This document shows, one piece after another, positions 3,956-61,235 of a stretch of DNA of 64,000 bases. The stretch comes from an uncultured Methanosarcinales archaeon. GTDB taxonomy: Archaea > Nanobdellota > Nanobdellia > Woesearchaeales > ARS49. Position 1 is the first letter of the stretch. Every line of letters starts with the position of its first letter. Under the pieces are notes generated by a model. That model was not told the DNA's origin. It saw only the letters and a list, made by a program, of their open reading frames with translations, and did no database searches. The stretch is taken from NCBI GenBank assembly GCA_964550175.1, contig CAZJXP010000001.1, positions 706,774-770,773 on the forward strand, read 5' to 3'. The translations under genes and the position numbers were made by a program.

Positions 3956-4056
3956 CCTTTTTACCGCCCCGATTCGAACCGTTGGCTCAATTGAATTCAA
4001 AATTATTGCCGTACGCTACGACAAAAAGAGCCGGTAAAAAGTTTGGGCGGTAAAGA
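3956..4056. repeat. MITE-like interspersed repeat, copy A (TIR 'ctttttaccgccc' ... 'gggcggtaaagag')
   Basis: Shares a head and tail with copies at 6604, 10403, 16304, 20829, 30807 and 61137. Confidence 0.55.
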
Positions 4057-4067
4057 GCTTAACGACG

Positions 4068-5774
4068 TTAACGTTGTATTTCTTTCAAGAACTTCTTTGT
4101 CGGCAACGTGTTCACCACGTCCTTCGCCTCCAACCAGCCTCTCCGTGCCTGCGCGACGCCGAGCTCCATGAATCGCAGATGGTCGACGCTGTGGCTGTCG
4201 GTGTTGATGATGAATTTTGATTTGAGCGCTTTCGCGGCCCTGATGTGCGTGTCTTTCAAATCCAATCGGCTGGGCGAACTGTTGATTTCAAGGAAAACTC
4301 CCGTATCGGCGCAGGCCTGCGCGACAGATTCGAAATCGAAATCAATGGGCTCGCGCGCGTTTATCAGCCGACCGGTCGGGTGGCTTATCGCCGTTATATT
4401 TCCCGACTGGATGGCCTTGAGGTAGCGCTGCGTGGCTGCGGCGCGGTCTGGCGTGAAGCGCTGATGCGAACTAGCCATAACTATGTCGAGCTGCTTCAAG
4501 ATTGCTGGCTTGTAGTCGAGACTGCCGTCCTTTTTGATGTCCACTTCGCTACCTTTGAGGATGGTGACGTCAGAATACTTTTTTTGCAGCTTGTCAATCT
4601 CTTCGCAGTGCTTGAGCAGCCGTTTTTCGTCCAGTCCGTTGGCGATGACTGAGCTTTTGCTGTGGTCGGTGATCGCGAGATAGTCATAGCCTTGCTTGAT
4701 TGCGGCTTGCACCATCTCTTCCGTCGTGTTGTTCCCGTCGCTCCAGCGCGTGTGCATGTGGCAGTCGCCCCGCATCGCGTCGTACGGAATCAGGGTCGGA
4801 AGCTTCTTTGCTTCTATTTCGCCCGTGTTCTCGCGAATTTCGGGCGCGGGATACGGAAGATTGAGCTTCTTGTAGATGTCCTTTTCAGTCTTGCCCGCGA
4901 CATACGTTCCTTTGCGGGTGAACAGCCCGTATTCGTTGAGCTTGAACCCCTTGTCGATCGCGATCTGTCGCACGCGGACGTTGTGCTCCTTGCTGCCGGT
5001 GAAGTATTGCATCGCCGCGCCGAACGATTTCGGCTCGAGCACGCGAACGTCGGCCTGCAGGTTGCCGATGAGGATGGCTGATTTTGTCGGGCCTTTCGCC
5101 AGGACTCTCGTGACGTCAGACATCGTCGTGAAGAAGTCCATGACTCTTGAGGGGTTCTTGCTAGTGACTAAGATGTCGATGTCCGCGATGGTCTCCTTTC
5201 TTCGTCGGACGCTGCCGGCGACTTCGGCGCGGTCGACGCCCTGAATGGTTTGCAGTCGTGCTTGGAGCTCGCGCGCTATGTCAAGCCCGGTGACGAGCAA
5301 TTTTCTTTCCTGGCCTTGCGCGTGCAGGCTCAATCCCTTCAGAATCTCCTGCTCGCTCTTCTCGCCGAAACCTGCGAGCTTTCGTATTTTGCCTGACTCT
5401 GCGGCCTTCTGCAAGTCGCGCAAGCTTTTGATGTTCAGTTTTTTGTTGAGAATGACTGCCCGTTTCGGTCCGAGACCGGGGATGTGCATCATCTCGTCGA
5501 CCCCTTTCGGAATGCGCTTTTCTAACTCTTTTAGCTCCTTGATTTTGCCGGTTGTCAGGAACTCCTCGGTCTTGTTCGCTATCGCTTCGCCTACGCCCGG
5601 AAGCTCCTTCAGCGCGGCCATGCCGCCTTTTGCGTAGATGTCCTCGATGGGCTTGCTCAAGGTTTCGATTGTTCTCGCGGCTTTACGAAAGGCGTTCGGC
5701 TTCCATTGCACGGCGAGAATTTCGAGCAGGTCGGCGATTTCGTAGAAGATGTCAGCTAGTTCTTGGTTCTTCAT
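4068..5774 (-). CDS. polX: DNA polymerase X family with C-terminal PHP phosphoesterase domain
   Basis: N-terminal HhH 'GIGEAIANKTEEF'; pol-beta palm; PHP motifs 'GDCHMHTRWSDG', 'AITDH', 'SHPTG', 'NTDSH'. Confidence 0.9.
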   Translation of the reverse strand: MKNQELADIFYEIADLLEILAVQWKPNAFRKAARTIETLSKPIEDIYAKGGMAALKELPGVGEAIANKTEEFLTTGKIKELKELEKRIPKGVDEMMHIPGLGPKRAVILNKKLNIKSLRDLQKAAESGKIRKLAGFGEKSEQEILKGLSLHAQGQERKLLVTGLDIARELQARLQTIQGVDRAEVAGSVRRRKETIADIDILVTSKNPSRVMDFFTTMSDVTRVLAKGPTKSAILIGNLQADVRVLEPKSFGAAMQYFTGSKEHNVRVRQIAIDKGFKLNEYGLFTRKGTYVAGKTEKDIYKKLNLPYPAPEIRENTGEIEAKKLPTLIPYDAMRGDCHMHTRWSDGNNTTEEMVQAAIKQGYDYLAITDHSKSSVIANGLDEKRLLKHCEEIDKLQKKYSDVTILKGSEVDIKKDGSLDYKPAILKQLDIVMASSHQRFTPDRAAATQRYLKAIQSGNITAISHPTGRLINAREPIDFDFESVAQACADTGVFLEINSSPSRLDLKDTHIRAAKALKSKFIINTDSHSVDHLRFMELGVAQARRGWLEAKDVVNTLPTKKFLKEIQR

Positions 5775-6223
5775 TGCTCGACCTTCACCTTTTCAACGAT
5801 TGTGAATTCGATGGGACGCCCGTGCGTGTCATATGCAGCAACACGGTTGAACGTGTACGGCCGGCAGATGATGAGGTTGACAAGGCCCATCGTAAACAGC
5901 CCTCGCTTGTCCATGCTGCTAGGCAGGTTGTTGAAGCTCGGATGGCTGTGGACGGTCCCTACTACTTCGTGCAGCAATGGAAGGTCGGCGCTGATGATTG
6001 CCTGGCTCTCGTTCGCGTGGTAGTGCTCGTAGACGATGCCCTTAACGTAGAGAATCTTGTTCGTGACCTTTCCTTGTAGGTAGGCCGAGAACTCGTTCGG
6101 ATGGGCGTTCTTCGCGAACTCGATGACGGTCTGGATGACTTGGCGTTCGACGAAGACCGAATGGAAGACATACTCCTCAAGCCCCGAGGCTCGGAGAGTC
6201 CAACGCATCAGCTTCTTCCACAT
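5771..6223 (-). CDS. JAB/MPN (JAMM) metalloprotease, RadC-like
   Basis: JAMM motif 'HSHPSFNNLPSSMD' (HxHx7Sx2D); 4-nt overlap with polX. Confidence 0.75.
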   Translation of the reverse strand: MWKKLMRWTLRASGLEEYVFHSVFVERQVIQTVIEFAKNAHPNEFSAYLQGKVTNKILYVKGIVYEHYHANESQAIISADLPLLHEVVGTVHSHPSFNNLPSSMDKRGLFTMGLVNLIICRPYTFNRVAAYDTHGRPIEFTIVEKVKVEQ

Positions 6224-6348
6224 GCTATTGTTATCGGTGGTTGAGGTTAAAGAGCTTTTCGTCTTGTGAAAGTCAGTTTTCGGATTTTTTACTTGGGACT
6301 TTCACAAGACGGGCAAAGTTTAAATAGCGTTGGTGATGGGATGAGCGC

Positions 6349-6570
6349 ATGGGATGCACCGCATGCAACGCGCCGTTGGCGCCGAACGACAAGTTCTGCG
6401 CAGCCTGCGGCGCGGTCCAGCAAAATGCCGCTCAGGTTTCTGAGATTATCGAGGATAGCGCTGACAACCAGGTCACGACCACGTGCGACAGATGCGGCGC
6501 GGGCTTGGTTTCGGGACAGATATTCTGCACCGTGTGCGGCAAACCTTCAGTTCAACTCGGCGAAGAGTGA
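6349..6570 (+). CDS. double zinc-ribbon protein
   Basis: 'CTACNAP...CAACG' and 'CDRCGAG...CTVCG'; TATA 'gtttaaatagc' about 25 nt upstream. Confidence 0.5.
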   Translation: MGCTACNAPLAPNDKFCAACGAVQQNAAQVSEIIEDSADNQVTTTCDRCGAGLVSGQIFCTVCGKPSVQLGEE

Positions 6571-6603
6571 GTTTGTAGTAGTCTTGGTTTCCTTGCCGTT
6601 CTT

Positions 6604-6687
6604 TTCCCAGGCAGATTTTGAGTAGTTTAGGCAATAATTCTATTTTGAATAGAGCCAACGGTTCTAATCTGGGCGGTAAAAAGTTTG
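6604..6687. repeat. MITE-like repeat, copy B (inverted orientation)
   Basis: Starts 'cagattttgagtag' and ends 'gggcggtaaaaag'. Confidence 0.55.
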
Positions 6688-6767
6688 CTTGGGAGAGCTT
6701 ACGTCGACAAAAACTATTGGCATTCATCACCATAATCCTTAAAAACACCTGCCACTCTGGAATAGTC

Positions 6768-7184
6768 ATGGACGAACGTCGACAACAGCTCAGGCGCGAT
6801 ATGGACTCCTACCTTTCGCAGCGGCGAAAGTCGGACTGGGGATTCTTTTCGAAGCCTGTTCTGCACCCGACGGTCCATCCTTACAAGAATAAGGAAATGA
6901 AGGAGGAATCGACCGTGGAATCATCCGAATCAACCGAACAAAAGAAAGGCTGGCTTTCCGGCATGGTCGACAAGCTCTTCGGCGAAGCGGCCGATGAAGA
7001 CGTTCCGGCAGAAGCGGTTTCTCAGGTTACTTCCACTGATGCGTCTGCTGACTTGAAGGAATTGGCGCGAATCTCGCTCGCGGTGATGAAGAAGATGCCG
7101 GGCGACCTCGTGCACGAGTTCAAGCAGTCCGCCGATTACGACCGATTCAAGGAACTTCTCCGCAAGCACCAACTCATCAAATGA
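6768..7184 (+). CDS. hypothetical protein
   Basis: The ORF-track start at 6618 lies inside repeat B, so the first Met after the repeat is used. The stop overlaps the next start (ATGA). Confidence 0.4.
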   Translation: MDERRQQLRRDMDSYLSQRRKSDWGFFSKPVLHPTVHPYKNKEMKEESTVESSESTEQKKGWLSGMVDKLFGEAADEDVPAEAVSQVTSTDASADLKELARISLAVMKKMPGDLVHEFKQSADYDRFKELLRKHQLIK

Positions 7185-8259: not shown

Positions 8260-8529
8260 GCCATTTTCATGAGTGGGACGTCTATAAAAGCCTTCGGAAG
8301 GCTTATATTTCAGGTCGTTTTACCTGTCAGATACTACTCCAGAGTGCTCTTAAATAGAAAGGTTTATATACCCTTTACACTATATCGTAGTAGTAACTCA
8401 AGTTATAATCACCTCTTTTTCCCGCGCGTACGCCCGCAAGGACGTGCGCTCGGGTTTCAACACTGCTTGACGACAGTCTCTTGGGGATAGTTTAGTTGTG
8501 TTTCGTTTGCTCTCCTTGACGCTCTTTTC

Positions 8530-8662
8530 CCCGGCAGATTTTGAGTACGTTTAATCGTCTTTAGAATTCTAGAAGTAACGACGATACAAAACGTGGCGGT
8601 ACAATCCGAATCCAGTTGGTTCGGATGTACAACAGGACTTGTCCTGTTCGTAAAAAGAGACT
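8530..8662. repeat. composite repeat, copy G (MITE tail + palindromic hairpin modules)
   Basis: 'ccggcagattttgag...gtggcggtac' + 'aatccgaatccagttggttcggatgtac' + 'acaggacttgtcctgt'. Same composite as 61091-61235, inverted. Confidence 0.5.
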
Positions 8663-8680: not shown

Positions 8681-10345
8681 CTAACGTTTTCTTTTCTTCG
8701 CCGGCCGCATGAACCACGCGATCAACAGTCCGAGGATAACGCCGCCGAAGACGAGCCCGACGCGGTCCCAAGGCATCTGCCTGCGCGGGGATTTCTGCTC
8801 AAAATAGATGTCGAGATTGCTAAGCTCGGTCGCGTATTCGGCGAACAGCAATGATGAGTATTGATCCTCGTTGCGCAAGGCCTTTGCGTATTCATAATAG
8901 GAGTAGCCGATTAACGGAAAGATGTTCTTCGATTGCGATCGTGCAAGTGAACGTTGGGCAATGCTTAATTTGAGGTCGATGAGCGCTTGCGTCTGGTTCT
9001 CTTCGACACCGGTGACGGTGATTAACAAATCAGCCTCGGCTTTTGCTTTCGCGGCTTCGTGCAGGCACACGACCGGATTACCATCTTTCAATTCGTTTTC
9101 CGCGTGCTTCAAGGTCTTTAACGTGGCTTGCAATCCTTCGGGGTAGAATGTCTGCACATAGTTGTATCGTTCCTCGGCTTCGCTGAGCTTTTCTTGGCAA
9201 GAACGTAGCAGCGTTTCGTTCGTGAAGGTGGTGGCTTTTCCGCCGGTGCCGAAGAATCTCGTCCAAGCTTTTGCGCTGTTCGCGCGCTCGGTCGCGTATG
9301 CGAGGTCGCGCGTTGTCTCGTCATCGGGGCTTTCGTTCAACAGAAGCTCCGCGGCTTCTCGTGCCTCGTCGATTCGTTCTTTCACCATCATGAACGTCTG
9401 GACGTCCGTGATGGTTTGAAGTGGACGGGCCTTCAACGCATTGTCTTGCGCGTCGATGTCTTGGATGAGTTTTGCGGCCTGTTCTCGGAACTCGGTTATG
9501 TCGTTGATCTTGCTGAACTCCTTCTGCGACTGCGCGAGGTTCGCCCGGAAGCAGTACGACGCGGCGGAGTAATATTCCCCCTGCGCGAAATATGTGTCGG
9601 ACAATAGCGTGAGGTTGAGGATTTTTGGGTCGTCAGTCCTTGGCTTGTCGCACAGCTCTTCAGCGACAGCGCGCATCGTTGTTTTGTAGGTCTCGTCAAT
9701 CGTGAATTTCAGCGTTGATTGGACAAGGGGTTTGTTGGTGAACTGCTCAAGCGCCTCTTGGATAGTCGCGACCTCGACGATTTCGACGCCCAAAGTCTTT
9801 CCGTAGGCGATGAGGTCTGTGGTTTCGTTGCCGTCGCGGTAATGCGACGTTCCGGCCGGAATGAGAATCTTTGTCAAGCCATTAGTTGCGGCCGCGGTTA
9901 TCTTTTCCTTCGTGCCGCCAACAGGGCCGATGATTCCGCCCGAGTTTATCGTGCCGGTCATCGCGACGCTTTCGTTCAGTTTTCGCCCTTCGAGCAAGGT
10001 TGCGACGAGGACTGCGGCGGCTCCTCCCGCGGACGGCCCGCCGACGATACCTGGCGCGGCGTTGATCGTGAAGAAGAAATCGGTGTCGTCGCAGTCGTGG
10101 TCAAGCTCGTTGCAGACGACCTGCTTTGCAAGCCGCATCGAGATCTGCGTTGCGATCTTGGTTAACGGGAAGGTTTCGAGGAACACCCGTCCTGACCCGG
10201 GCTGGGTTTCCAAGGATAGATCCGCAAGCATGCCCGTGCTGTTGCCGTTTTCCTCAACTAAGGCCAAGAGTTTTAGATGGGCTTCTGCGGCGGAAACTGA
10301 TGGGATTAATAGAAGCGATAGGAGAATTAATGCGATGCATTTCAT
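8681..10345 (-). CDS. secreted/membrane-anchored Lon-like S16 serine peptidase (no AAA+ domain)
   Basis: Signal peptide; 'GPSAGGAAA' with the catalytic Ser and 'GGTKEKI' with the catalytic Lys; C-terminal TM segment plus 'KKRKR'. Confidence 0.75.
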   Translation of the reverse strand: MKCIALILLSLLLIPSVSAAEAHLKLLALVEENGNSTGMLADLSLETQPGSGRVFLETFPLTKIATQISMRLAKQVVCNELDHDCDDTDFFFTINAAPGIVGGPSAGGAAAVLVATLLEGRKLNESVAMTGTINSGGIIGPVGGTKEKITAAATNGLTKILIPAGTSHYRDGNETTDLIAYGKTLGVEIVEVATIQEALEQFTNKPLVQSTLKFTIDETYKTTMRAVAEELCDKPRTDDPKILNLTLLSDTYFAQGEYYSAASYCFRANLAQSQKEFSKINDITEFREQAAKLIQDIDAQDNALKARPLQTITDVQTFMMVKERIDEAREAAELLLNESPDDETTRDLAYATERANSAKAWTRFFGTGGKATTFTNETLLRSCQEKLSEAEERYNYVQTFYPEGLQATLKTLKHAENELKDGNPVVCLHEAAKAKAEADLLITVTGVEENQTQALIDLKLSIAQRSLARSQSKNIFPLIGYSYYEYAKALRNEDQYSSLLFAEYATELSNLDIYFEQKSPRRQMPWDRVGLVFGGVILGLLIAWFMRPAKKRKR

Positions 10346-10402: not shown

Positions 10403-10487
10403 ACTTTTTACCGCCCCGATTAGAACCGTTGGCTCTATTCAAAATAAACTGATAGCCTAAACGACTCAAAATTCGCTGGTAAAAAGT
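10403..10487. repeat. MITE-like repeat, copy C
   Basis: 'ctttttaccgccccgattagaaccgttggctc...cgactcaaaattcgctggtaaaaag'. Confidence 0.55.
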
Positions 10488-10508
10488 GTACTTGGGCGTG
10501 CAACGTGA

Positions 10509-11102
10509 ATGCAGGAATTTCACTGGACAATCGCTCGTAGCCTATTTGAACGCGTATTTTGTTCGCCGGTTGTGCGCCAGATGACCCTCCTTGAGTTCGG
10601 ACTGAAAATCAAGACCGAGTACGTCCCGATGCGGAACTATCCCTACAAATCAAGACATGGATTGTCCGAGTTGCAATTACGAAAACGGCTCGAGAAACAA
10701 GGCTGGCACGTGTGGCGCGGCGGGTTTTTGCACGCCGCTTCGGATTACTTTCCGTCAGTGCGGCGCAGATATAACCAATTGGCCGAGCTTATTACTGAGT
10801 TTTACGGCAAGGAGTTGTTTGAGCGACTGTGCTATCTTTCGTCCGTGCACCACGGCATGCCTGACTTTCTCTGCTATCATCCCGCCACCAAGGAGTTCAA
10901 GTTTGTGGAGTGCAAATTAGGGCACGAATCGCTTTCTCATCGGCAGATAATGACGATATCTAAATTGCGCGACGTTGGGTTCGTTACTGAGGTGCATAAA
11001 TTGGTTGATTCGTGCACGAAAACAAGACGGGCGACGGTTGACGTTTCTTTCGGAAAGAAGGAGGTGCTTGAGAAGGAAATGACGCTGAAGACGAAGTGGT
11101 GA
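10509..11102 (+). CDS. VRR-NUC domain nuclease (PD-(D/E)xK)
   Basis: 'HGMPDFLCYHP...FVECKLGHESLSHRQ'. Confidence 0.6.
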   Translation: MQEFHWTIARSLFERVFCSPVVRQMTLLEFGLKIKTEYVPMRNYPYKSRHGLSELQLRKRLEKQGWHVWRGGFLHAASDYFPSVRRRYNQLAELITEFYGKELFERLCYLSSVHHGMPDFLCYHPATKEFKFVECKLGHESLSHRQIMTISKLRDVGFVTEVHKLVDSCTKTRRATVDVSFGKKEVLEKEMTLKTKW

Positions 11103-13403
11103 TTACTTCTTCGCTTTTGTTTTTTTCACGGTTTTCTTCGCTTTTGGCGCAGGTTTCGTCGGAGCCGTTACATTAGAAGTTGCATTGGGCGTTCCAGGCA
11201 CCGTAGTCGTCCCATCCGCTGCTTTCGCCACACGCTCGGCCTTCTGGATGTAGCGACACTTCGGGAATTGGTCGCACGCGACGAACTGGCCGTAGACAGA
11301 CTTTCTCACGAGAAGCTTGCCAATTAAACACTTCGGGCAAGACTGCCCGACAATCTTTGATAAGTCGACATACTTCTTCGGGCAGTCCGTGTTGATGCAG
11401 ACTTCCTGCGGCTTCTTCGCCTTCTTGATGATGAGAATGATGGGGTGGGTGCAGACGTCGCAAATCTTGTCCGTCACCTGCGTCAATCCGTTCGTCGGCA
11501 GCTTGAATGTCGTCTTGCATTCCGGATAGGTGTCGCAGGCGATGAATTTGCCGAACTTTCCTTTTCGTAAGACCAAATGACCATTTACGCACTTCGGGCA
11601 CTTGCCGACGCGCGTGAGGCTTGTTCTTGTGTCTTGGAAAGTGACTTTGAGCCCTTCGCCGATTTCTTTTTCCTTGGTCTTGAATGCGGCCAGTATCTTG
11701 ATTAATAGTTTCCTTGCATCCTCAAGAATCAACGGGCCTTTTGCCTTGTGCTCGCGGATCTGGTCCATCTCATCTTCAAACTTTTTGGTCAAGTTTTCGT
11801 CGACAATTTCGGGAACGTTCTTTTCCAAAACGTCCGTGATGTGGATGCCGAGCTCGGTCGCCTGGATTGCTTTTCCGGTGATGTAGTTTCGCTCGTACAG
11901 CGTTTCGATGATGTTGGCTCGCGTCGCTTTCGTGCCGAGGTTGCGCTTTTCGAGCTCCTTGATGATGCTCGCTTCCGTGTATCGTTTTGGCGGCTGTGTT
12001 TCTTTCGTATGGAGCGTGAATTCTTTGACTGTCACGGTGTCGCCCTTTTCCATCGGCGGAAGCTCGTCCTCGCCGAACGGAACATACGGCGCGTAGAATT
12101 CGTGCCAGCCCTTGACAACCGTGGTTGTGCCGGCCGCGATGAACGGTTCGTTCTTCGCGTTTAATTCCACGGTCATTGTCTCTCGGGTTGCGGGATCGGA
12201 GAACGTCGCGAGGAATCGTTTGACAATCAAATCGTACACTTTCGCCGGTCGGTCATCCAATCGTTTCGGCAACACACCCGTCGGATAGATGGCCGGGTGG
12301 GCCGGGTCGGTCTTGAGGCCGTTGTGCGGCACCAGCGTGCCCTTCTTCAGGAGTTTGTTGACGAGCGCTTCGTACATGTCCTCGCGCTTGAGCGAATTGA
12401 AAATCTTGTTGAACCCCAACGCGGGCGGGAGCTGCTGGCTGCTCGTTCGCGGATACGAAATGTATCCCGAGGTGTACAAGTCCTGCGCGATGTCGAGCGT
12501 GAACCTCGGCGAGATGCCGAAGCAGCGGTAGGATTCCGTCTGCAAGGTCGTGAGGTCGAATGGCGTCGGCGGGTGCTGCTGGAACTGCTTCTTGACAAGG
12601 CTGGTGACTTCGACCTTCTTTTCGTCCTTCACCTTCGCGTAGATGGCGTCGGCCTTCGGCTTGTCCCAGAACTTGTCCTCCTTGTGCCACGCACTGACGG
12701 GCTTTTGTTTATGGTCACCCACAAGCTCAATCTGCCAGAACGGCACGGGCTTGAACGCGAGAATCTCCTTTTCGCGGTCGACGATGGTCTTGAGTGCAGG
12801 TCCTTGGACGCGACCGGTCGAGAGAATCTTGAACATGCCGGACGTCTTGATTGCGGACGTTAACGCTCGAGAAAAGTTGATGCCGTAATAGTAGTCGAGG
12901 AAATGTCGCGTTTCGCCGGCTTCGGCCTGTCCCCAGTCCAGGTGCGGCATCGCCTTAGCGTAGGCTTCGACAAGGTCTTCCTTGGTCAAGGTGCTGAACT
13001 TCATTCGATGTGCGTCCTTCTGGTTGCACGCGTACTTCACGATATTGAGCCCGATGACCTCGCCTTCGACGTCGTAGTCCGTCGCGACCGTGAACGAGTC
13101 GGCTTTTTTCGCTAAGGACTTGATTTCATCGAGATATTTCTTTGAGAATGCGGCGCTTCGCGAAACGTCGCTGGTTGGCACCCATTGGATGTCGAACACC
13201 GGATATTGGAATCCTTTCGTCTTCACTTTTTCGGCCAGACCGTACAAATGACCGACTGCGCAAGCCACGATGATCTTCTTGCCCTTGTGAGTGAGCTCGT
13301 AATACGGAGCGCCAGAGCCGCCCTTGTGCGCTTTGTCGTCGGCTAACGCGTCGGCGATCTTCTTCGCGGCGTTCGGCTTTTCAGTGATGATGAGCTCAAC
13401 CAT
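11103..13403 (-). CDS. topA: DNA topoisomerase I (type IA) with C-terminal zinc ribbons
   Basis: Toprim domain 'LIITEKPNAAKKIA'. C-terminal CxxC...CxxC ribbon pairs. The start is trimmed to the Met preceding the Toprim domain. Confidence 0.9.
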   Translation of the reverse strand: MVELIITEKPNAAKKIADALADDKAHKGGSGAPYYELTHKGKKIIVACAVGHLYGLAEKVKTKGFQYPVFDIQWVPTSDVSRSAAFSKKYLDEIKSLAKKADSFTVATDYDVEGEVIGLNIVKYACNQKDAHRMKFSTLTKEDLVEAYAKAMPHLDWGQAEAGETRHFLDYYYGINFSRALTSAIKTSGMFKILSTGRVQGPALKTIVDREKEILAFKPVPFWQIELVGDHKQKPVSAWHKEDKFWDKPKADAIYAKVKDEKKVEVTSLVKKQFQQHPPTPFDLTTLQTESYRCFGISPRFTLDIAQDLYTSGYISYPRTSSQQLPPALGFNKIFNSLKREDMYEALVNKLLKKGTLVPHNGLKTDPAHPAIYPTGVLPKRLDDRPAKVYDLIVKRFLATFSDPATRETMTVELNAKNEPFIAAGTTTVVKGWHEFYAPYVPFGEDELPPMEKGDTVTVKEFTLHTKETQPPKRYTEASIIKELEKRNLGTKATRANIIETLYERNYITGKAIQATELGIHITDVLEKNVPEIVDENLTKKFEDEMDQIREHKAKGPLILEDARKLLIKILAAFKTKEKEIGEGLKVTFQDTRTSLTRVGKCPKCVNGHLVLRKGKFGKFIACDTYPECKTTFKLPTNGLTQVTDKICDVCTHPIILIIKKAKKPQEVCINTDCPKKYVDLSKIVGQSCPKCLIGKLLVRKSVYGQFVACDQFPKCRYIQKAERVAKAADGTTTVPGTPNATSNVTAPTKPAPKAKKTVKKTKAKK

Positions 13404-14100: not shown

Positions 14101-15120
14101 ATGCACCACGATTTCGCCACCCAGTTCAAAGGAGAGGCGTTCCCGCAGATTCTCGGCCAGACTCAGACGAAGCACCAGCTGAAGTCTGCGTTATTGATGG
14201 ACCGCCATGTCATCATCGTCGGCCCGCCGGGCATTGGCAAAACGACGCTGGCCAAGAACGTGGCGCAACTTCTTCCGAGTATTCTTGTAAATGATTGTGA
14301 TTATCATTGCGACCCGCAGAAGCCGATGTGCCCGTCTTGCAAGAATAAGAAGGCAAAGACAATCAAAGTTTCTGGTGAAGACCGATTCATCCGCGTGCAA
14401 GGCAGTCCCGACTTGACGGCCGAGGATTTGCTCGGTGACATAGATCCAGTAAAGGCATTGCAGTTCGGCCCGACAAGCATCCAGGCGTTCACGCCCGGCA
14501 AAATATTCAAGGCCAACAATGGCATCTTGTTCTTCGATGAATTGAACCGCGCGCCCGAAAAATTGCAGAACGCGCTGCTGCAAGTTCTTGAGGAAGGAAA
14601 GGCAACCATCGGCAGCTACTCAATTGATTTGCCGGCGAACTTCATCTTCATCGGCACGATGAACCCGGAAGAGACCGCGGCAACCGAGAAATTATCCGAC
14701 GTGTTCCTTGACCGTTTCGACATCATCCACATGGGCTATCCTGAGACGGTCGAGCTCGAACGGCAGATTGTTCTGTCCCACGGCAAAAAGATTGAAGTTG
14801 CTTTTGATGTGAATTTACTGACGCTCGCGCTGTTCTTCGTTCGCTCATTACGACAGCACAAGGACGTGCAGAAGAAGCCGTCCGTGCGAGCGTCTTTGGG
14901 AATTTATGAGCGCGCGCAAGCGAACGCCTTCCTCGCGAAGCGAAAATCAGTAACGAGCCAGGATGTTTCGGATGCGCTCATCAGCGTGCTCGGCCACCGA
15001 CTCGAGCTTAAACCTTCAGCTAAATACTTGCAGTCATCCGACCAGTTCGTCGCAGAACAGTTCAAGAATTTCTTGCGGGACACCCCTGCATTCGAAGAGC
15101 ACGGTGGTGGTGGTCTTTGA
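14101..15120 (+). CDS. MoxR/ChlI-like AAA+ ATPase with Zn-ribbon insertion
   Basis: Walker A 'GPPGIGKTT'; Walker B 'ILFFDELNRA'; sensor 'GTMNPEE'; insertion 'CDYHCDPQKPMCPSCK'. Confidence 0.8.
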   Translation: MHHDFATQFKGEAFPQILGQTQTKHQLKSALLMDRHVIIVGPPGIGKTTLAKNVAQLLPSILVNDCDYHCDPQKPMCPSCKNKKAKTIKVSGEDRFIRVQGSPDLTAEDLLGDIDPVKALQFGPTSIQAFTPGKIFKANNGILFFDELNRAPEKLQNALLQVLEEGKATIGSYSIDLPANFIFIGTMNPEETAATEKLSDVFLDRFDIIHMGYPETVELERQIVLSHGKKIEVAFDVNLLTLALFFVRSLRQHKDVQKKPSVRASLGIYERAQANAFLAKRKSVTSQDVSDALISVLGHRLELKPSAKYLQSSDQFVAEQFKNFLRDTPAFEEHGGGGL

Positions 15121-16297
15121 CGTGGAGGACGTCAAAGTCCAAGACCTCCAAGATATAGACGAACTCGACGGGAAGCTTTCCAATTCTAAGGACGAAGCGC
15201 TTATGCATTCGGTGATGCAGAACGACAAGCAAACAATTGATGATGGTAAATTAATCGCGGATTCGTTCAATCAAGGGCTCGGAAGCTTTACGCCGGACAT
15301 TCTTTTTGAGCAGATTGTGAAGAACTATTCGCTTGCGAAACAATTGCTAGGGGATACGATTTTGCGTCTTGTGTCGGGGTATGACCCGAATTATATCGAG
15401 AAGAACCTGCCGATTCCTGAGTTCAGAAAACAACTGATGTCGAACATCCGCAAGAAGATCGACCAGCTCAAGGATAAGAAATTGCTGACGGACGACGGCA
15501 TGATTGCCGAAAAGGGCGTTGATTTAGCGAGCATGGTGCTCTATGTCGAAGAGCTCGACCATCTGATTCCCAAAGGCGCATTTGGCGAACGGACGCTCAA
15601 AAAACGAGCGCAGTACGGCGAGCATGGTGAGGCTCGGATTTATCGAAAGGGGGATAGGTATCGTGACGTCAGCGTGCGCAAGAGCGTGCGACTCGCGGTG
15701 CGACGCGGAAACGCGAAGCTTTCTCCGAACGATTTGAAAATCCAAGAGCGCCGGAGCAAAGGAACGGTTCATTTGATTTACGGCATCGACTCGAGCGCGA
15801 GCATGAAAGGAAGCAAGCTCGAGACGTGCAAAAAAGCAGGGATTGCGTTAGCGTATCAGGCCATCCAGCACAAGGACCTTGTCGGGCTAGTCGTGTTCGG
15901 AAACGAAGTCAAGAACTCGATTGCACCGACGAGCGACTTCAACCAATTGTTGCGGGCGTTGACGACCGTTAAAGCGTCGCGCGAGACCGACTTCACCGCT
16001 TTGATCATGAAAGCGATAGAATTGTTTCCGATTAATGATTCGACCCGGCATTTGATTATTCTTACTGACGCGATGCCGACCGTCGGCTTGGAGCCGCGCG
16101 AGGAGACCATCGCGGCGGTTGGACGAGCTGCCGCAGCGGGAATCACGCTGTCCATTGTTGGAATCCAGCTGGATAGAAATGGAACGTCTCTCGCAAAAGA
16201 AATGGTTCAGATCGGCAACGGACGTCTGTACTCCGTGAAGAACCTTGATGAAGTTGATAAACTTGTTTTGCAGGAATACGATGAGATTAGGGGATAG
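15110..16297 (+). CDS. VWA (MIDAS) domain protein, partner of the AAA+ ATPase
   Basis: MIDAS 'GIDSSASM' ... 'ILTDAMPT'. Start uncertain: a GTG overlapping the upstream stop, or the ATG at 15209. Confidence 0.7.
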   Translation: MVFDVEDVKVQDLQDIDELDGKLSNSKDEALMHSVMQNDKQTIDDGKLIADSFNQGLGSFTPDILFEQIVKNYSLAKQLLGDTILRLVSGYDPNYIEKNLPIPEFRKQLMSNIRKKIDQLKDKKLLTDDGMIAEKGVDLASMVLYVEELDHLIPKGAFGERTLKKRAQYGEHGEARIYRKGDRYRDVSVRKSVRLAVRRGNAKLSPNDLKIQERRSKGTVHLIYGIDSSASMKGSKLETCKKAGIALAYQAIQHKDLVGLVVFGNEVKNSIAPTSDFNQLLRALTTVKASRETDFTALIMKAIELFPINDSTRHLIILTDAMPTVGLEPREETIAAVGRAAAAGITLSIVGIQLDRNGTSLAKEMVQIGNGRLYSVKNLDEVDKLVLQEYDEIRG

Positions 16298-16303: not shown

Positions 16304-16412
16304 TACTTTTTACCGCCCAAACTTTTTACCGCCCCGATTAGAACCGGTGGCTCAATCGTAAATAGAATTATTGCCTAAACGACTCAAAATCTGCCGGCGC
16401 GAACCAACGTAA
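16304..16412. repeat. MITE-like repeat, copy D (duplicated head)
   Basis: 'ctttttaccgccc' ×2 ... 'cgactcaaaatctgccggcgcgaaccaacgt'. Confidence 0.55.
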
Positions 16413-16458
16413 AGGGAACTCTTACTGCGTAGGAACGCGTAAATTGCCCTAAGAAACC

Positions 16459-20828: not shown

Positions 20829-20908
20829 TCTTTTTACCGCCCCGTTTAGATGCGTTCAGGCCATAATTTTATTTACTATTGAGCCACTAACTCAAAATCT
20901 GCAGTGGC
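20829..20908. repeat. MITE-like repeat, copy E (divergent)
   Basis: 'ctttttaccgccccgtttaga...ctattgagccactaactcaaaatctgcag'. Confidence 0.5.
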
Positions 20909-20936
20909 TAGAACTGCCTGGGAAAAGTAACTTCAC

Positions 20937-37010: not shown

Positions 37011-37039
37011 GTTTCGCTTCGAGAAACAAATGATATCTG

Positions 37040-37122
37040 TTTCCTTCGGAAACAGGAATAAAACACAATCAGAACGTTCTACGTTCTGATGTGCATGAGA
37101 ACTTATAGTTCTCATTGCATTC
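37040..37122 (+). other. array of three perfect stem-loops upstream of rtcA
   Basis: 'ctgtttcc-ttcg-ggaaacag'; 'cagaacg-ttcta-cgttctg'; 'atgagaact-tat-agttctcat'. Confidence 0.4.
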
Positions 37123-46058: not shown

Positions 46059-46820
46059 ATGGAAATAAACGCACAAACTGCGGAATTATGCGGCATCATT
46101 CTTGGTGATGGTCACATGCATAAAACGAAAAATCGAATAACGATCTCTGGCAGCAAGGATGACATCCATTATTTCCGCAACCGAGTTATTCCCTTGTTTC
46201 TCCAATGTTTCCCAGACATACATCCCGTATTAGTTCGACTTAAAACAGCCGAGGCATATAATCTTCAAGTTGAGAATAAGTTAGCATTTCAGTTTTTTAT
46301 TCAATCATATAATTTGCAACGGGGACCCAAAGAGGCTATGCACATTCCTTTAGTCATCCTTGCGAATGATTCACTTATTCCTCATTTTCTCCGAGGACTT
46401 TTTGATACTGATGGTTCATTTAAATTTTGCAAACAGGCACGCGGTTATGCATATTACCCTCGAATACGCATTGCTTTAGCCGAGTCTCCTCTCACTGATG
46501 CGTTACAGTTCCTTTTTACGCGCGCGGGATTTAAGGCGATAAAATCAGTGAAACTGAATCATGGGTTTGCAACGATGAAGAATCTTGTAACCTACGAAAT
46601 TTCCGGTTGCGCGGCTTTTGAACGGTGGATGACTCATATTTGTCCCGCTAATCCTGTGCAAAAAGCAAAGTATGACTATTGGACGAAATATGGACGTCAT
46701 GAGCCAGGAATGATTTATGAAGAAAGAATTTACAAAATAGCCTCGGGCGGATTCGAACCGCCGTCAACGCGTCCAGAGCGCGCTATACTTGACCAACTAT
46801 ACGACGAGGCTTTAAAGTAA
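46059..46820 (+). CDS. free-standing LAGLIDADG homing endonuclease (double motif)
   Basis: 'LCGIILGDGHM' and 'LRGLFDTDGSF'. Own TATA 'catataaatg' about 22 nt upstream. The last ~28 codons are antisense to tRNA-Gln. Confidence 0.7.
   Translation: MEINAQTAELCGIILGDGHMHKTKNRITISGSKDDIHYFRNRVIPLFLQCFPDIHPVLVRLKTAEAYNLQVENKLAFQFFIQSYNLQRGPKEAMHIPLVILANDSLIPHFLRGLFDTDGSFKFCKQARGYAYYPRIRIALAESPLTDALQFLFTRAGFKAIKSVKLNHGFATMKNLVTYEISGCAAFERWMTHICPANPVQKAKYDYWTKYGRHEPGMIYEERIYKIASGGFEPPSTRPERAILDQLYDEALK
46738..46811 (-). tRNA. tRNA-Gln (anticodon CTG)
   Basis: Acceptor AGCCTCG/CGAGGCT (A1:U72); D stem GTAT/GTAT; anticodon stem GCGCG/CGCGT with loop CTCTGGA; T arm GGCGG-TTCGAAT-CCGCC. TATA 'agctttttaaacc' upstream. 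Confidence 0.8.
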
Positions 46821-51854: not shown

Positions 51855-52242
51855 TTGTTTTTTCCCCCGTTTTTTGGTTTGTTGACAATGCATTAGCGTG
51901 TGCAGTATATAGGTTCCACTACCAAAACCTTTATATGCAACTTTATACCAATGCCTCTTAGAACAACACGATTGCTTCGCGCCAACGAACGATCGTCAGC
52001 GGTGTTTTTCGAACGCCAATTCGAAACACACGAAATTGAATTTTCCAAACCCACAGTTGATTTTTACTTCCCCGCCAAGGGTCGTCGAAATCGTTTATTT
52101 TATCTCTTTCGTATTTAAACTTCTTTATATACTTTATTGTGTTTAAATATAGCTTTTAAAGGACTAGGCCTACGGTTCTGATGGAATTCTACCTTGATTT
52201 CGCGTGGAAAGGTTTAAAAAGACACCGACGATAAATCATATC

Positions 52243-53250: not shown

Positions 53251-53324
53251 ACGATGTCTAACGAGAATCCGTTTATAAAGCTTTCAGTAGCTCGGAGGAA
53301 CTTTTTACGATGAGGATTCGAGGT

Positions 53325-53368
53325 CCACATGTACATCCGAACCCACTGGATTCGGATTGTGCCACCAC
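53325..53368. repeat. palindromic hairpin module of the composite repeat (solo copy)
   Basis: 'gtacatccgaacccactggattcggattgtgccaccacgtttgg'. Confidence 0.5.
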
Positions 53369-53529
53369 GTTTGGAAGTTCGTCGTCAGAGGTTAAAGAAT
53401 CTGAAGTTGCTGTAACGACGACTCAAAAATTTCGAACTCGGTTCGAAAATTCTCGAACGCAACGTTCGAGATATCTGCCGGTGCGAGCCCGCGTAGTGGG
53501 AACAGTAACGAACAAGGCAGCAGAGGTAA

Positions 53530-55692: not shown

Positions 55693-55714
55693 GTGTTGCG
55701 TTGGCTTTCCCCGG

Positions 55715-55790
55715 CCGTTATTGTCATGCCGTTTCGTACGTTAACGACGACTCAAAATCTGCCGGCGCGAGTCAACGTGTGGGGTAGGCT
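55715..55790. repeat. partial MITE-like repeat (tail module), copy I
   Basis: 'taacgacgactcaaaatctgccggcgcgagtcaacgtgtgggg'. Confidence 0.5.
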
Positions 55791-56022: not shown

Positions 56023-57357
56023 ATGACCGAATCTGAGCACCGCATCGACGCGACGTCGAAAGACTCCCAGCACGGCGTAGATGCCCGACTCGAGAATGAG
56101 ATTCGAAAGCACGCGCTCAACGCGCTTCTCTACATCAACCAGCGCGCGAGCCTAACGACCGAAACCATTGATGGAAAGACCGTTGAACTCAGCCCGCTTG
56201 AATCGGCTTGCAGAGCTATTGCCTTGTCCGTTTCTGATGTGTTCTCCCATACCAAAAATTCGGAGGGCACCATCGATTGCGCCGTGAGCATTGCGCCGAA
56301 ATCCGATCCGAAGCAAGCGCGCGTCTACGCGATCAAGGAATCGGACGACGAACATTGGAAAGACCTCAACGGCGTGCACCATCGACAGGGAGCATCCAAC
56401 TTCGCAACCTACGAGATTCCCCTCGGCGCGGACGCGACGAACACCGCGCTGATTTACATCTGCGCACCGCTGAGCCAAGTTGACGATTATGTCCAATTCC
56501 GATTCTTGCAGGAAATAAAGCCCCATTTAGCGACGACCTTGAAGGTGGCGAACGGCCGCACCAAGGAACTTGACGCTAACCGAAACTTGACGAAGAAATT
56601 CGTGCGCAGCCATCTCGGCAAGAACTATGAGCTCGCCGAAATTTCAATCCTTCCGCCGTATTTCAAGAAAAGCTCGGGGTTGCAGCTGTTGGGAAAAGTC
56701 ATCCAGAAGATGCACAAGTCAAACGAACCGTTGAGCGTCATGATACTTGACTTCGACAATTTCCATGATTATAACGGTGCCTATGGCCACGGTCAAGGAG
56801 ATGTTGCGCTCACACATCTGGGACGGGAAATCTACAAAAATATCGATCATACCCATCCGCACGACATCAAAAGCATCTACGATTATTTGCTCGCCTCTTC
56901 GTGCCCGGGCGACTCGGCAAACCACGAGCCCGACGCGGAAAAGCACTTTAAAGCGTGCGAAGAATGGAAGAACCAAATTGTCGAGAACCTCGCGCACAAG
57001 ACTCCAGGCGACTTCCTCATCAGATACGGCGGCGAAGAGCTCGTCGCGGTTCTTGTCGGAGCAACTCCTCAACAGGCAGAAAGCGCGGCCAAGCGAGTGC
57101 AGCAGCACATCAACGACTTAGTGATTCCCGCGCCGATGAACAGCAAAGCCCAGAGGCTCTACGGCCCGAAGCAGCTGCCCGTCAGCAAAGTCACCGTTTC
57201 CATCGGGGTCAGCGGCATGCTGCCCGATTCGATGATATCAGGTAAAGAGCTCATTGAAGAGGCGGACGGCGCGCTGTACGCGGCGAAAGACGCGGGCAGA
57301 AACCGCGTCATGCTGTACGATCCTGCGACGATGAAACCGCACGTTACCCAAGAGTAA
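56023..57357 (+). CDS. GGDEF-domain nucleotide cyclase (GGEEL variant) with N-terminal sensor-like domain
   Basis: 'MILDFDNFHDYNGAYGHGQGDVAL', 'RYGGEELVAVL', 'VTVSIGVS', 'EADGALYAAKDAGRNRV'. Confidence 0.8.
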   Translation: MTESEHRIDATSKDSQHGVDARLENEIRKHALNALLYINQRASLTTETIDGKTVELSPLESACRAIALSVSDVFSHTKNSEGTIDCAVSIAPKSDPKQARVYAIKESDDEHWKDLNGVHHRQGASNFATYEIPLGADATNTALIYICAPLSQVDDYVQFRFLQEIKPHLATTLKVANGRTKELDANRNLTKKFVRSHLGKNYELAEISILPPYFKKSSGLQLLGKVIQKMHKSNEPLSVMILDFDNFHDYNGAYGHGQGDVALTHLGREIYKNIDHTHPHDIKSIYDYLLASSCPGDSANHEPDAEKHFKACEEWKNQIVENLAHKTPGDFLIRYGGEELVAVLVGATPQQAESAAKRVQQHINDLVIPAPMNSKAQRLYGPKQLPVSKVTVSIGVSGMLPDSMISGKELIEEADGALYAAKDAGRNRVMLYDPATMKPHVTQE

Positions 57358-57418: not shown

Positions 57419-57976
57419 ATGAAAACATACTCCGAACTCAAAGAAGACAGCCTGCCCACGATTAAAGAGTACACTCCTGAATTGCTGGTTTCTCGCATTC
57501 AGGACGCCGTTGCTTCGCATCCTGAACAGCCTCGTTTGGCAATGCTGGCGGACATCGACGCCTTCAAGTGCTATTTCGACGAATACGGCCCTGAACAGCG
57601 ACTTATCGTGCTCGGCAACGTCAATGACTATTTCAGTCATTTGAAGAAAAAACACGAAATTTCATTAATTGACCGCATGAAGATCGACCAATTTTTCCTG
57701 CTCGCGCCGATGAAAGACGGGCTGGCAGAGCGAATCCGACAGGACATCGACCAAATGCGCTTTCCGAAGCACGATCTGAACTCGACAGAGGTCCCGCTTG
57801 AGGACGGAAGAACAATATCGCCGAACCACGTGACGGTCCACATCGGCCAGATCGGATTCATCCCGAACCAGTCGCTCGACTACAGAACGATGCTCTTCCG
57901 ATTACATGAGCTCACGCGTGGCATCGGCGCGGACAAGACGCTTAGAAAAGACTGGAACGAGTATTCAGTGCTTTAA
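57419..57976 (+). CDS. degenerate GGDEF-like domain protein
   Basis: 'MLADIDAFKCYFDEYGPEQRL' and 'VTVHIGQIG' are conserved, but the GGDEF motif is replaced by 'DRMKIDQFFLL'. Confidence 0.5.
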   Translation: MKTYSELKEDSLPTIKEYTPELLVSRIQDAVASHPEQPRLAMLADIDAFKCYFDEYGPEQRLIVLGNVNDYFSHLKKKHEISLIDRMKIDQFFLLAPMKDGLAERIRQDIDQMRFPKHDLNSTEVPLEDGRTISPNHVTVHIGQIGFIPNQSLDYRTMLFRLHELTRGIGADKTLRKDWNEYSVL

Positions 57977-59936: not shown

Positions 59937-59945
59937 ACATTCACC

Positions 59946-60872
59946 TCAACAGGTCACGGCGCAGGCGGCTTTACAGGCCACCAAATCATCGCTGCACGTT
60001 GATGTGCAGCGTGGAACAAGATAGTCTTGGCATTCATCGATCGTGCCTTCTTGGCAGCCGTCGCGGCAGTATACCGGGTGCATGAACACGTTGCATGCAT
60101 CTCGGCAGAAGTCCTCATCTTCGGCTTCGCAGCCCGCGGTCACGGCGTCCTCGCAACCAGCGCCGCAATCATCATCGGCCGTGTCGCAGGCATCGGAGCA
60201 ATCGTCAATGCAGCTTTCGCGCGAGGTGTTGAGCTGCAGTACGGTGAACAGTTCGTCAGATGAACGCACAACCGTATCTGCAAGCGTTGTGAACGTGACT
60301 GTTCTGTTCATAATTTCGACTCCATCCCAGACTTCCGCCTTGAGCGACGGCGTGATGTAGGCGCTTTCACCGACAAGCCTGACGGTGCCGGGCAAAATCG
60401 TGAGCAGCACGCCCGTCGGGTGCGTTTCAACGAGCTTCAGCGTTATTGGCAACGTGATTGTGCCATAAGGAATTTCGCCGTCATATTCGACGTTATCTTT
60501 CGTCGCTTCGGCATCCAATTTGAATCGCATCTGCGTGAATTCCTGCGGCGGCATCTGGACATCGATCACCAATTGCGGGTTCTCGTTCGCGACGATGTCC
60601 ACGCTCACCTTTTCTGAGCTGAGCTTTTTCCAGCTGTCTTTTGTCTTGTCGTACAGCTCGATTTCGCCAACTTTGAGCTTGAACACGTCAAAGCCTTCAA
60701 CTGTCCCGGTCGTCGCGACGACGAACTGCGCGAGCTTTTCTTCGACTTCAACGGGCTCGGGAGTCGTGTTCGTGACGTTCGGAATCACAGGAGATTCAAC
60801 CGGGACTTTCGAGGAGCAGGCGACTAACAAGAATACGATTAACAACAACCACTTTTTTTGCATAGCATTCAA
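59946..60872 (-). CDS. Cys-rich lipoprotein (paralogous C-terminal domain)
   Basis: Lipobox 'LLVAC'; beta-rich middle; C-terminal 'CxDDCSDACD...CRDGCQEG...C' cluster. Confidence 0.55.
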   Translation of the reverse strand: MNAMQKKWLLLIVFLLVACSSKVPVESPVIPNVTNTTPEPVEVEEKLAQFVVATTGTVEGFDVFKLKVGEIELYDKTKDSWKKLSSEKVSVDIVANENPQLVIDVQMPPQEFTQMRFKLDAEATKDNVEYDGEIPYGTITLPITLKLVETHPTGVLLTILPGTVRLVGESAYITPSLKAEVWDGVEIMNRTVTFTTLADTVVRSSDELFTVLQLNTSRESCIDDCSDACDTADDDCGAGCEDAVTAGCEAEDEDFCRDACNVFMHPVYCRDGCQEGTIDECQDYLVPRCTSTCSDDLVACKAACAVTC

Positions 60873-60927
60873 CTTCTCTTTCGTTATTTAAGCTTTATGG
60901 GGATGAAGTTGGCTCGATGAAGACTGA

Positions 60928-61000
60928 CGCCCCCCGCCAGAATCGAACTGGCGACCTCGTGGTTAACAGCCACGCGCTCTAACCGCTGAGCTAGGGGGGC
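60928..61000 (-). tRNA. tRNA-Asn (anticodon GTT)
   Basis: Acceptor GCCCCCC/GGGGGGC; D stem GCTC/GAGC; anticodon stem CGTGG/CCACG with loop CTGTTAA; T arm GCCAG-TTCGATT-CTGGC. Confidence 0.85.
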
Positions 61001-61090
61001 ACTTGTTCTTGGCTTTCGAGTCGGTTTAAAAGCTTTTCTTCGTCATTTGAGGAAGTCGCTTTGCTTGTCCCATTCTACCTTTTTACGAAG

Positions 61091-61235
61091 AGGACTCGAA
61101 GTCCTCTTGTACATCCGAACCCACTGGATTCGGATTGTACCGCCCCGATTGGACGAGTTTAGGCTATGATGCTATTTACTATCGAGCCACTCACTCAAAA
61201 TCTGCCGGGGCGAAGCCAACGTGCGGGGAAGAGCA
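61091..61235. repeat. composite repeat, copy F (hairpin modules + MITE core + tail)
   Basis: 'gaggactcgaagtcctc' + 'gtacatccgaacccactggattcggattgtacc' + 'gccccgattgg...ctcactcaaaatctgccggggcgaagccaacgtgcgggg'. Confidence 0.55.

Follow-up and report, generated by a model that had tools for sequence, protein, structure and literature searches.

A mosaic family of short foldback repeats, probably of mobile origin, between the genes of a woesearchaeal archaeon

What are the short repeats that recur in the gene spacers of a 64,000-nucleotide (nt) stretch of archaeal DNA (contig CAZJXP010000001.1, positions 706,774 to 770,773; the window in what follows), and how did they come to lie there? The window is a chromosomal piece of a Woesearchaeota (DPANN) archaeon with a housekeeping gene content, in which an earlier reading of the sequence (the original prediction) had noticed at least ten related segments that might be non-autonomous transposons, regulatory or insulator elements, or small RNA genes. 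Our analysis suggests that they probably form a lineage-specific, non-autonomous, foldback family of repeats of mobile origin, which resembles miniature inverted-repeat transposable elements, or MITEs, and is organised as a mosaic in the manner of bacterial interspersed mosaic elements (BIMEs) and of BOX elements.

The ten places were recovered by two kinds of search: blastn of the ten reported segments against the window returned exactly those places and nothing further, and a profile hidden Markov model (HMM) built from the aligned backbones recognised these same ten, with E values from 1e-22 to 4e-6, and no other stretch of the window. The 24-mer of the head, with up to three mismatches, has five matches in the window and the 24-mer of the tail has three, with none expected in either case, and the octamers CTTTTTAC and ACTCAAAA lie within copies in 13 of 14 and in eight of eight occurrences, respectively. 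Judged by these similarities, all ten sites are copies of one family, here numbered c1 to c10 along the window. Some boundaries had to be moved relative to the original prediction: c8 starts at 53301 instead of 53325, c9 at 55698 instead of 55715, and c10 at 61079 instead of 61091. Logan contigs lengthen the window by about 9.7 kb on either side, to some 83 kb of readable DNA in total. The right extension holds an eleventh copy, c11, about 450 nt past the window end (Logan contig L010, 3327-3471, minus strand), and in the left extension (~9.7 kb), which is filled by long genes, no copy was found. The density amounts to ten copies in 64 kb, that is about 156 per Mb or roughly one repeat of ~85 nt every 6 kb, and the extension adds one copy in 19 kb.

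All ten copies of the window are intergenic, as had been foreseen, and because intergenic DNA makes up only ~10.6% of the window, the chance probability of this distribution is about 2e-10. The copies are present in both orientations, occupy ten of the 27 spacers that measure 80 nt or more and together account for 1.9% of the window. They have unrelated flanks, and breaks of Logan contigs fall inside c1 (3958 and 3986), c8 (53452) and c10 (61126), as expected of repeats or palindromes in a De Bruijn assembly; within the ~83 kb these observations speak for a dispersed family and against local segmental duplication. Since the 29-mer at the head of c1 is unique in the window and a contig nevertheless breaks there, another copy presumably lies elsewhere in the genome.

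The basic unit of the family is an imperfect palindrome of 83-85 nt (85 nt in c1, 84 in c2, 83 in c4 and c7, and 83 in c3 after excision of its nested insert), and nested inserts bring the length of a copy up to 210 nt. Two diverged arms of ~30 nt flank an AT-rich centre: the left arm reads CTTTTTAC-CGCCCCGATTAGAACCGTTGGCTC, and the right arm, roughly its reverse complement, reads GCCTAAACGACTCAAAATCTGCCGG-GG(T/G)AAAAG, the unit as a whole running from CTTTTTACCGSC to GG(T/G)AAAAG. The closing GG(T/G)AAAAG is preceded by CC or CT, and nine to 12 terminal bases are well matched, followed by imperfect symmetry to about 30 nt. The inverted ends that had been predicted are therefore present, but not as an exact 13-mer. 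The head that had been quoted for the whole family is found in c1, c2, c4 and c5, whereas a variant subfamily of c3, c7, c8 and c11 carries the head CGCCACGTTTTGTATCGTCG in its place and c9 has a tail-type arm at either end. The best conserved block is the 16-mer ACTCAAAATCTGCCGG, and the ends that a parent insertion sequence (IS) of the family would read are CTTTTTACCGCC. In five copies (c5, c8, c9, c10 and c11) we found a D-type tail, in which ~16 nt (CGCGAACCAACGTAAA) are inserted between CTGCCGG and GGGAA and from which the T/A run is gone. A second, partly degenerate terminal 13-mer stands on one side of c1, c2, c4 and c5 (e.g. GGTAAAAAG-TTT-GGGCGGTAAAGAG), and a tail extension, AACGGCAAGGAAACC, with some 20 further tail bases (AACG.CAAGGA.A.CA), is common to c2, c3 and c8.

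Smaller palindromes are nested in this backbone at fixed points. In c3, c8, c10 and, outside the window, c11, two palindromic units (H1 and H2), anticipated by the original prediction as palindromic modules, are inserted exactly between CTTTTTAC and CGCC, at the same site in all four copies, and each is framed by (T/G)TAC, for example TTAC-G-AAGAGGACT-CGA-AGTCCTCTT-GTAC-A-TCCGAACCCACTGGATTCGGA-TT-GTAC. The second slot of c11 keeps the frame GTACA...TGTAC around an inner stem that differs and is still complementary (AACAGGAC...GTCCTGTT); it is the stem found in the first slot of c3. An extra pair of perfect hairpins in c8, TTTCGAAC-TCG-GTTCGAAA and TCTCGAACG-CAA-CGTTCGAGA, is inserted at the junction of ACTCAAAAT and CTGCC, where it sits 3' of AAAT and ends in ATAT. 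H1, H2 and the nested units are palindromes of 19-32 nt framed by (T/G)TAC or AAAT, and a fixed TTTAC or AAAT precedes these nested hairpin units only; the backbone arms are not palindromic.

The central core of 34 nt (GTGGCTCAAT..AATTATTGCCTAAAC) is inverted in c6 and c10 relative to c1, c2, c4 and c5, with no change of orientation in the outer arms: core identity between c5 and c6 is 57% forward and 86% reversed, and between c5 and c10 it is 54% and 83%. Folded as single strands, the plain copies c1, c2, c4 and c7 form one long bulged hairpin (z -2.3 to -3.1 against shuffled sequences) and the insert-bearing c3, c10 and c11 reach z -2.9 to -4.0, whereas c5, c6 and c9 fold no better than shuffles. 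The unit codes for nothing, and the stop-free six-frame peptides of the 11 copies (1914 amino acids, aa) gave nothing at E<=10 against 5.8 billion proteins.

Comparison with relatives suggests that the repeats belong to one lineage. At the syntenic loci of the two nearest relatives, L013 (GCA_016203265.1; 63% aa identity, GC content 52%) and L014 (54% identity, GC content 43%), neither a copy of the family nor any other repeat family was found. The Zn-ribbon gene is separated from the next gene by 58 and 56 nt in L013 and L014, against 230 nt here, and the promoter CCATAATCCTTAAAAA is conserved just past c2. Between Lon and VRR-NUC, L014 has 111 nt where the window has 235 nt. At PolX, whose neighbour is convergent in L014 as it is here, L014 has no spacer at all (0 nt), whereas that of the window measures 120 nt; in L013 an additional gene intervenes, and the spacer adjoining PolX is 54 nt. 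Because the relatives have no copies and shorter orthologous spacers, the copies of the window look like lineage-specific insertions between intact functional signals. A gapped pattern scan of 185,579 species-representative genomes gave only five chance bacterial hits and a scan of JGI metagenomes 20 hits, none of them homologous by blastn (the source genome is in neither collection); two scans of IMG/VR viral sequences gave none, and plasmid and phage databases no match. These scans used exact patterns or blastn, which diverged relatives could escape. Since none of the other genomes and metagenomes scanned was found to contain it, the family could serve as a strain or lineage marker.

The surroundings of the copies hint at a possible function. 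Only c1 lies between convergent genes; c2, c3, c5, c6, c7 and c9 lie between genes in tandem and begin 2-31 nt past the upstream stop, and c4, c10, c11 and probably c8 separate divergent starts. Archaeal RNA polymerase terminates intrinsically at oligo-T tracts and needs no hairpin to do so, and element-free genes of the window usually have five or more T in a row shortly past the stop codon. For six genes, namely that at 3297-3947 and those for PolX, the Lon-like protein, the VWA protein, the TFS-like protein and the CHASE2-cyclase, the only such tract is the CTTTTTAC of an element, which lies 2-27 nt past the stop codon and is the sole tract of its kind in those spacers, as would suit an archaeal oligo-T terminator. 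Of nine gene ends abutting an element, seven meet a T4-T5 run at its proximal edge, and because the element ends are inverted such a run faces the polymerase from either side. With an oligo-T tract at each outer edge, and with these tracts being the only ones for six genes, many copies might serve as two-way oligo-T terminators or insulators between closely packed transcription units, a role that we propose tentatively and think somewhat less probable than its absence. A preference of the elements for inserting at pre-existing T-rich terminators may instead have brought about the association. The D-type tail points at the downstream gene start in all five of its carriers (P ~0.03).

In being short and non-coding, in carrying terminal inverted repeats and in occurring as many dispersed copies at unrelated sites over ~83 kb, the family behaves as MITEs do, and its foldback potential, its nesting and the empty spacers of the relatives likewise favour the non-autonomous transposon among the readings first offered. 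The ancestral unit is an imperfect palindrome of 83-85 bp, with arms beginning CTTTTTACCGSC around an AT-rich centre, whose copies would have been placed by a trans-acting enzyme recognising the inverted ends. Smaller palindromic units later invaded it at the fixed points after CTTTTTAC and between ACTCAAAAT and CTGCC, and the flipping of the 34-bp core in some copies completes the mosaic look. In a genome that is 89% coding, insertions would have survived only at 'safe' sites, that is from stop to promoter, between convergent stops or between divergent promoters, where each outer edge would offer a T4-T5 tract to incoming RNA polymerase and make the element a portable two-way terminator or insulator; if transcribed, it would form a 3' hairpin.

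Several observations weigh against this account. Target-site duplications, which the original prediction proposed to look for, are not detectable above a random-pair control, the best flanking direct repeats being 3-5 nt long in shifting registers, with a 6-nt flanking direct repeat in c6 alone. Nor was a transposase or integrase, the other expected companion, found by Pfam among 50 ORFs (open reading frames) of the window. With pairwise backbone identities of ~64-89% no two copies are nearly identical, and the family thus gives no sign of recent activity. Presence/absence polymorphism is likewise lacking, as four to five samples of a single project (SRR13076500, 506, 517 and 528) yield Logan contigs that are 100% identical to the window. 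As regards the terminator role, c9 and the D-type tails have no T-run, and between divergent promoters, the site of three or four copies, no terminator is called for; together with the T-less D-type tails that face promoters, these copies show that not every copy can have termination as its role.

Because neither a target-site duplication nor, in the window, a parent transposase was found, a rival with a hairpin-recognising enzyme is conceivable, in which the repeats are elements of the repetitive extragenic palindrome (REP), REPIN or BIME type, moved not by a DDE transposase but by a single-strand HUH/Y1 enzyme of the RAYT (REP-associated tyrosine transposase) or IS200/IS605 TnpA type. The terminal inverted repeats would be two inverted recognition arms and the small palindromic units the primary mobile modules. 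We grant this scenario a small but real chance. It agrees with the missing duplication, with (T/G)TAC-bounded units that are inserted exactly 3' of TTTAC and end in GTAC, with the H2 slot of c11, where the GTACA...TGTAC frame surrounds a different complementary stem, and with the second hairpin pair 3' of AAAT that ends in ATAT. The tandem and nested units of a mosaic organisation, a flipped core compatible with hairpin intermediates and an extragenic site mostly beside gene 3' ends point the same way. However, the 83-nt backbone arms are not palindromes, unlike REPs, only three or four copies of each hairpin unit are visible, and no Y1/HUH gene was detected among the 50 ORFs scanned in the window; the GTAC frame, since it belongs to the palindrome stems, need not be a cleavage signal, and RAYT/REP systems have been described mainly in bacteria. 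Elements derived from IS200/IS605 of the PATE (palindrome-associated transposable element) kind are a poor match, as the backbone has clear inverted termini.

That the repeats are instead host regulatory DNA (chromatin, insulator or transcription-factor sites, or terminator cassettes) which was spread and kept by selection is an explanation that we regard as unlikely, even though the 16-mer ACTCAAAATCTGCCGG is so well conserved, the D-type tails point at a downstream start in five of five cases, the T-tracts face incoming transcription at seven of nine abutting gene ends and the copies are fixed and identical in all samples. The homology, instead of stopping at a short site, spans all ~85-100 nt and takes in both the AT-rich centre and the nested inserts, the copies occur in every context and in both orientations, and they are missing from the same spacers of relatives whose true promoter motifs are kept, which makes a purely regulatory origin unlikely. 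Moreover, the downstream genes (GAPDH, tRNA-Arg, ligase, unknown proteins) have no shared theme, and the bias of orientation comprises five cases only. That the repeats are genes for small non-coding RNAs, or RNA elements acting in cis, with a fold that is conserved, is very improbable in our opinion. Most copies do fold better than shuffled controls, and one change in the hairpin units looks compensatory (AAGAGGAC/GTCCTCTT in c10 against ATGAGGAC/GTCCTCAT in c11), but no match in Rfam 15 was obtained at E<=1, and the alignment fold keeps only nine terminal pairs, present in all plain copies, with no compensatory pair among them; the small-RNA gene of the original prediction is for these reasons unlikely. 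A promoter at a fixed distance is lacking too, c5, c6 and c9 do not surpass their shuffles, the copies take both orientations relative to neighbouring genes, and two of them have an inverted core. More speculatively, and with little confidence, one may imagine a self-propagating two-way oligo-T terminator or insulator cassette that is moved without target duplication by a hairpin-recognising HUH/Y1 enzyme of RAYT-like kind; this would be an archaeal counterpart of the REPIN-RAYT system, and its hairpin intermediates would have left the flipped core and the GTAC-framed nested hairpins as traces.

The family of MITE-like repeats that we favour has parallels in several known systems. The Correia repeat-enclosed elements, MITEs of Neisseria, are non-coding and ~100-150 bp long with terminal inverted repeats and a foldback RNA, as is likewise the case here; they occur in dozens to hundreds of intergenic copies with length variants of internal segments, and an influence on transcription, including termination, has been reported. 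There is no sequence similarity between the two, the TA target-site duplication is not seen here, and the host is archaeal, for which reason any termination would be owed to the oligo-T tract, not to a hairpin. We know of no mobilising enzyme for Correia elements, as for the present family. The RAYT-associated REP, BIME and REPIN elements of Proteobacteria are similarly extragenic, mostly at gene 3' ends, form mosaics of palindromic units in tandem or inverted order, have inverted doublets that fold to a long hairpin, and lack target-site duplications. In contrast to these, the arms described here are not short GC-rich palindromes with 5' GT(A/G)G, no RAYT is present in the window, hairpin-unit copies are few in the region read, and the host is an archaeon. 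MITEs from archaea (Sulfolobus SM1-4, Halobacterium, Haloquadratum) are also small non-autonomous intergenic repeats bounded by terminal inverted repeats; those of Sulfolobus have identifiable parent IS elements and target-site duplications, neither of which was found in the window. Rickettsia palindromic elements, too, are palindromic repeats of ~100 bp that proliferated in the reduced genome of a host-dependent organism, but they often insert in frame inside genes, whereas the full copies here are all intergenic. The pneumococcal BOX, RUP and SPRITE repeats resemble the family in being modular (boxA/B/C-like), inserted into one another and arranged in intergenic clusters, and the SPRITE of Streptococcus pneumoniae resembles a terminator (PMC10969869). 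Their sequences are unrelated to ours, and a bacterial rho-independent hairpin with U-run differs from the archaeal oligo-T tract alone.

In an automated census a Woesearchaeal genome ranked among the densest archaea at 105 MITEs per Mb, and 97% of prokaryotic MITEs were found to be genus-specific (PMC11602168). MITE-like repeats are accordingly already known, archaea included, and it is this family, its mosaic structure and its possible terminator role that appear, as far as our searches show, to be undescribed. DPANN archaea, with genomes of ~1 Mb and 89% coding sequence, are thought to carry little selfish DNA. A family that takes up ~1.9% of the window and sits in ten of 27 sizeable spacers suggests that small mobile-type repeats can thrive in such genomes, where they are also a practical cause of assembly breaks. 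If the T5 tracts do terminate transcription, the repeats would be portable bidirectional terminators in Archaea, and mobile DNA would supply basic gene-boundary signals in a streamlined genome.

The individual copies are made up as follows. The copy c1 (3957-4057, plus strand) consists of an 85-nt backbone (3957-4041) followed by an extra inverted terminal repeat, TTTGGGCGGTAAAGAG (4042-4057), and fills the 120-nt spacer between the convergent stops of ORF 3297-3947(+) and of the PolX gene, identified by Pfam, at 4068-5774(-). In c2 (6587-6699, minus strand) an 84-nt backbone (6600-6683) has a degenerate doubled terminus; the Zn-ribbon gene 6349-6570(+) stops on one side of this copy, and the conserved promoter of gene 6801-7184(+) stands on the other. 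The copy c3 (8504-8657, minus strand), with a backbone of 83 nt without the insert, contains nested H1 (8631-8649) and H2 (8599-8630) and begins 24 nt past the stop of the Lon-like gene 8681-10345(-), on the other side of which c4 (10404-10505, plus strand; 83-nt backbone 10404-10486, then a degenerate extra terminus 10487-10505) separates the Lon-like promoter (gene start 10345) from the divergent promoter of VRR-NUC (probable gene start 10581). A duplicated terminus (16306-16321) opens c5 (16306-16420, plus strand), whose backbone runs from 16322 and ends in the D-type tail CGCGAACCAACGTAAAGGGAAC (16398-16419); it begins 9 nt past the stop of the VWA gene 14963-16297(+). Only 2 nt separate c6 (20830-20927, plus strand), with its inverted core of 34 nt and a small internal tail duplication, from the stop of the TFS-like gene 20463-20828(+).

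The nearly symmetric c7 (30809-30891, 83 nt, best match on the minus strand) has CTTTTTACC at both ends, belongs with c3 to the variant subfamily and separates the stop of the CHASE2-cyclase gene 30912-32771(-) from the start of gene 30244-30753(-). Several additions are carried by c8 (53301-53510, plus strand): H1 at 53309-53330, H2 at 53331-53362, the two perfect hairpins of the second nested insert at 53431-53474, and a D-type tail at 53482-53505. Tail-type arms characterise c9 (55698-55790, plus strand; left end GGCTTTCCCCGGCCG at 55703-55717, D-type tail at 55766-55788), which separates the DNA ligase stop (55692) from tRNA-Arg (55871). Between tRNA-Asn(-) at 60926-61001 and the GAPDH gene at 61302(+), c10 (61079-61235, plus strand) combines H1 (61087-61108), H2 (61109-61140), an inverted core and a D-type tail (61209-61234). 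Finally, c11, with palindromic units of its own, separates divergent starts outside the window. Some 8.8 kb past the window end (L010 8712-8744, minus strand), a 33-nt stretch, ACTTTTTACCGGCACGATTGGGGTCGTCGTTTC, is ~78% like an arm from the variant subfamily (HMM E 0.008); situated within a giant ORF of 2297 aa, it may be a solo arm or a chance match, in short a doubtful half-copy.

A few apparent connections between the repeats and other signals were considered. The TATA boxes at 16459, 55831 and 61279, which the original prediction had placed immediately downstream of copies, do exist, but they belong to the downstream genes; the distance from CTGCCGG to the TATA varies (60, 67 and 70 nt) and the sequences in between share no homology, and the boxes were therefore rejected as part of the element. 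That the inverted pair c3/c4 mediated an inversion of the Lon-like gene was considered and rejected: L014 is arranged as the window is, which places the inversion in the lineage of L013, where the elements are absent. Rejected, too, was the tail of c4, GGTAAAAAG, as a TATA box for a VRR-NUC gene with its ATG at 10509. A promoter block, TTTCACTGGACA-N9-TAGCCTATTT, is conserved upstream of VRR-NUC in the window (10515-10580), in L013 (10385-10442) and in L014 (9890-10000), and since it lies downstream of c4 the gene is likely to start at 10581 and not at 10509; conservation of the block suggests a transcription-factor site. The centre of H2, CCAGTGG, may resemble archaeal origin-recognition boxes, with no orc1/cdc6 gene nearby and with the copies dispersed; GATTCGAACC in c1 may resemble a tRNA T-loop, and has no matching stem.

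Two further arrangements of hairpins lie outside the repeats. At 37009-37115 there is a row of four perfect hairpins, each 19-23 nt long (TTGTTTC..GAAACAA, CTGTTTCC..GGAAACAG, ATCAGAACGT..ACGTTCTGAT and ATGAGAACT..AGTTCTCAT), which follows a long stretch rich in T and lies upstream of the gene for RNA 3'-phosphate cyclase. They are of the xxGAAC-loop-GTTCxx style of the nested hairpins in c8 and of a hairpin at 52007-52026, and may be solo members of the class of small palindromic units. A block of ~65 nt, GAAACCCGAGCGCACG..CGTACGCGCGGGAAAAAGAGGTGAT..GTTACTACT, occurs at 8395-8458(-) in the window, at ~8495-8560(-) in L013 and at ~11776-11840(+) in L014, and is nearly invariant in the three genomes despite protein identities of only 54-63%. 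It always stands just upstream of the promoter of a gene for a metallo-beta-lactamase-fold protein, even where the adjoining Lon gene is inverted. The block folds as two hairpins with one compensatory pair, has no Rfam match and is likely a small RNA or a cis-regulatory element.

The window has a GC content of ~52% and a coding share of ~89%. The Lon-like ORF 8681-10345(-) has its nearest relatives in Candidatus Woesearchaeota (63% and 54% identity) and is 100% identical to a protein in Logan assemblies. Among the 50 ORFs, the Pfam scan identified PolX, topoisomerase I, H+-pyrophosphatase, FtsZ, DNA ligase, GAPDH, PGK and XPD, as well as Trm1, TFS, NucS, adenylate kinase, ThyX, dCTP deaminase and others; five tRNA genes are present, with no further Rfam match in the window. 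ORF 46059-46820(+), of 253 aa, has a free-standing LAGLIDADG_3 homing-endonuclease-like domain (E 8e-7), and its 3' end overlaps tRNA-Gln(CTG) at 46738-46811 on the opposite strand; the sole CTTTTTAC octamer outside the repeat copies sits in this ORF. Two tandem repeats of 120 nt, 75% identical, are found at 39536-39775 within ORF 38258-40444(-), whose product of 728 aa has no Pfam match and is probably a repeat-containing structural or coiled-coil protein. The CHASE2-adenylate/guanylate cyclase gene 30912-32771(-) and two GGDEF-domain genes at 56023-57357(+) and 57419-57976(+) represent an unusual wealth of nucleotide second-messenger signalling for a DPANN genome of ~1 Mb.

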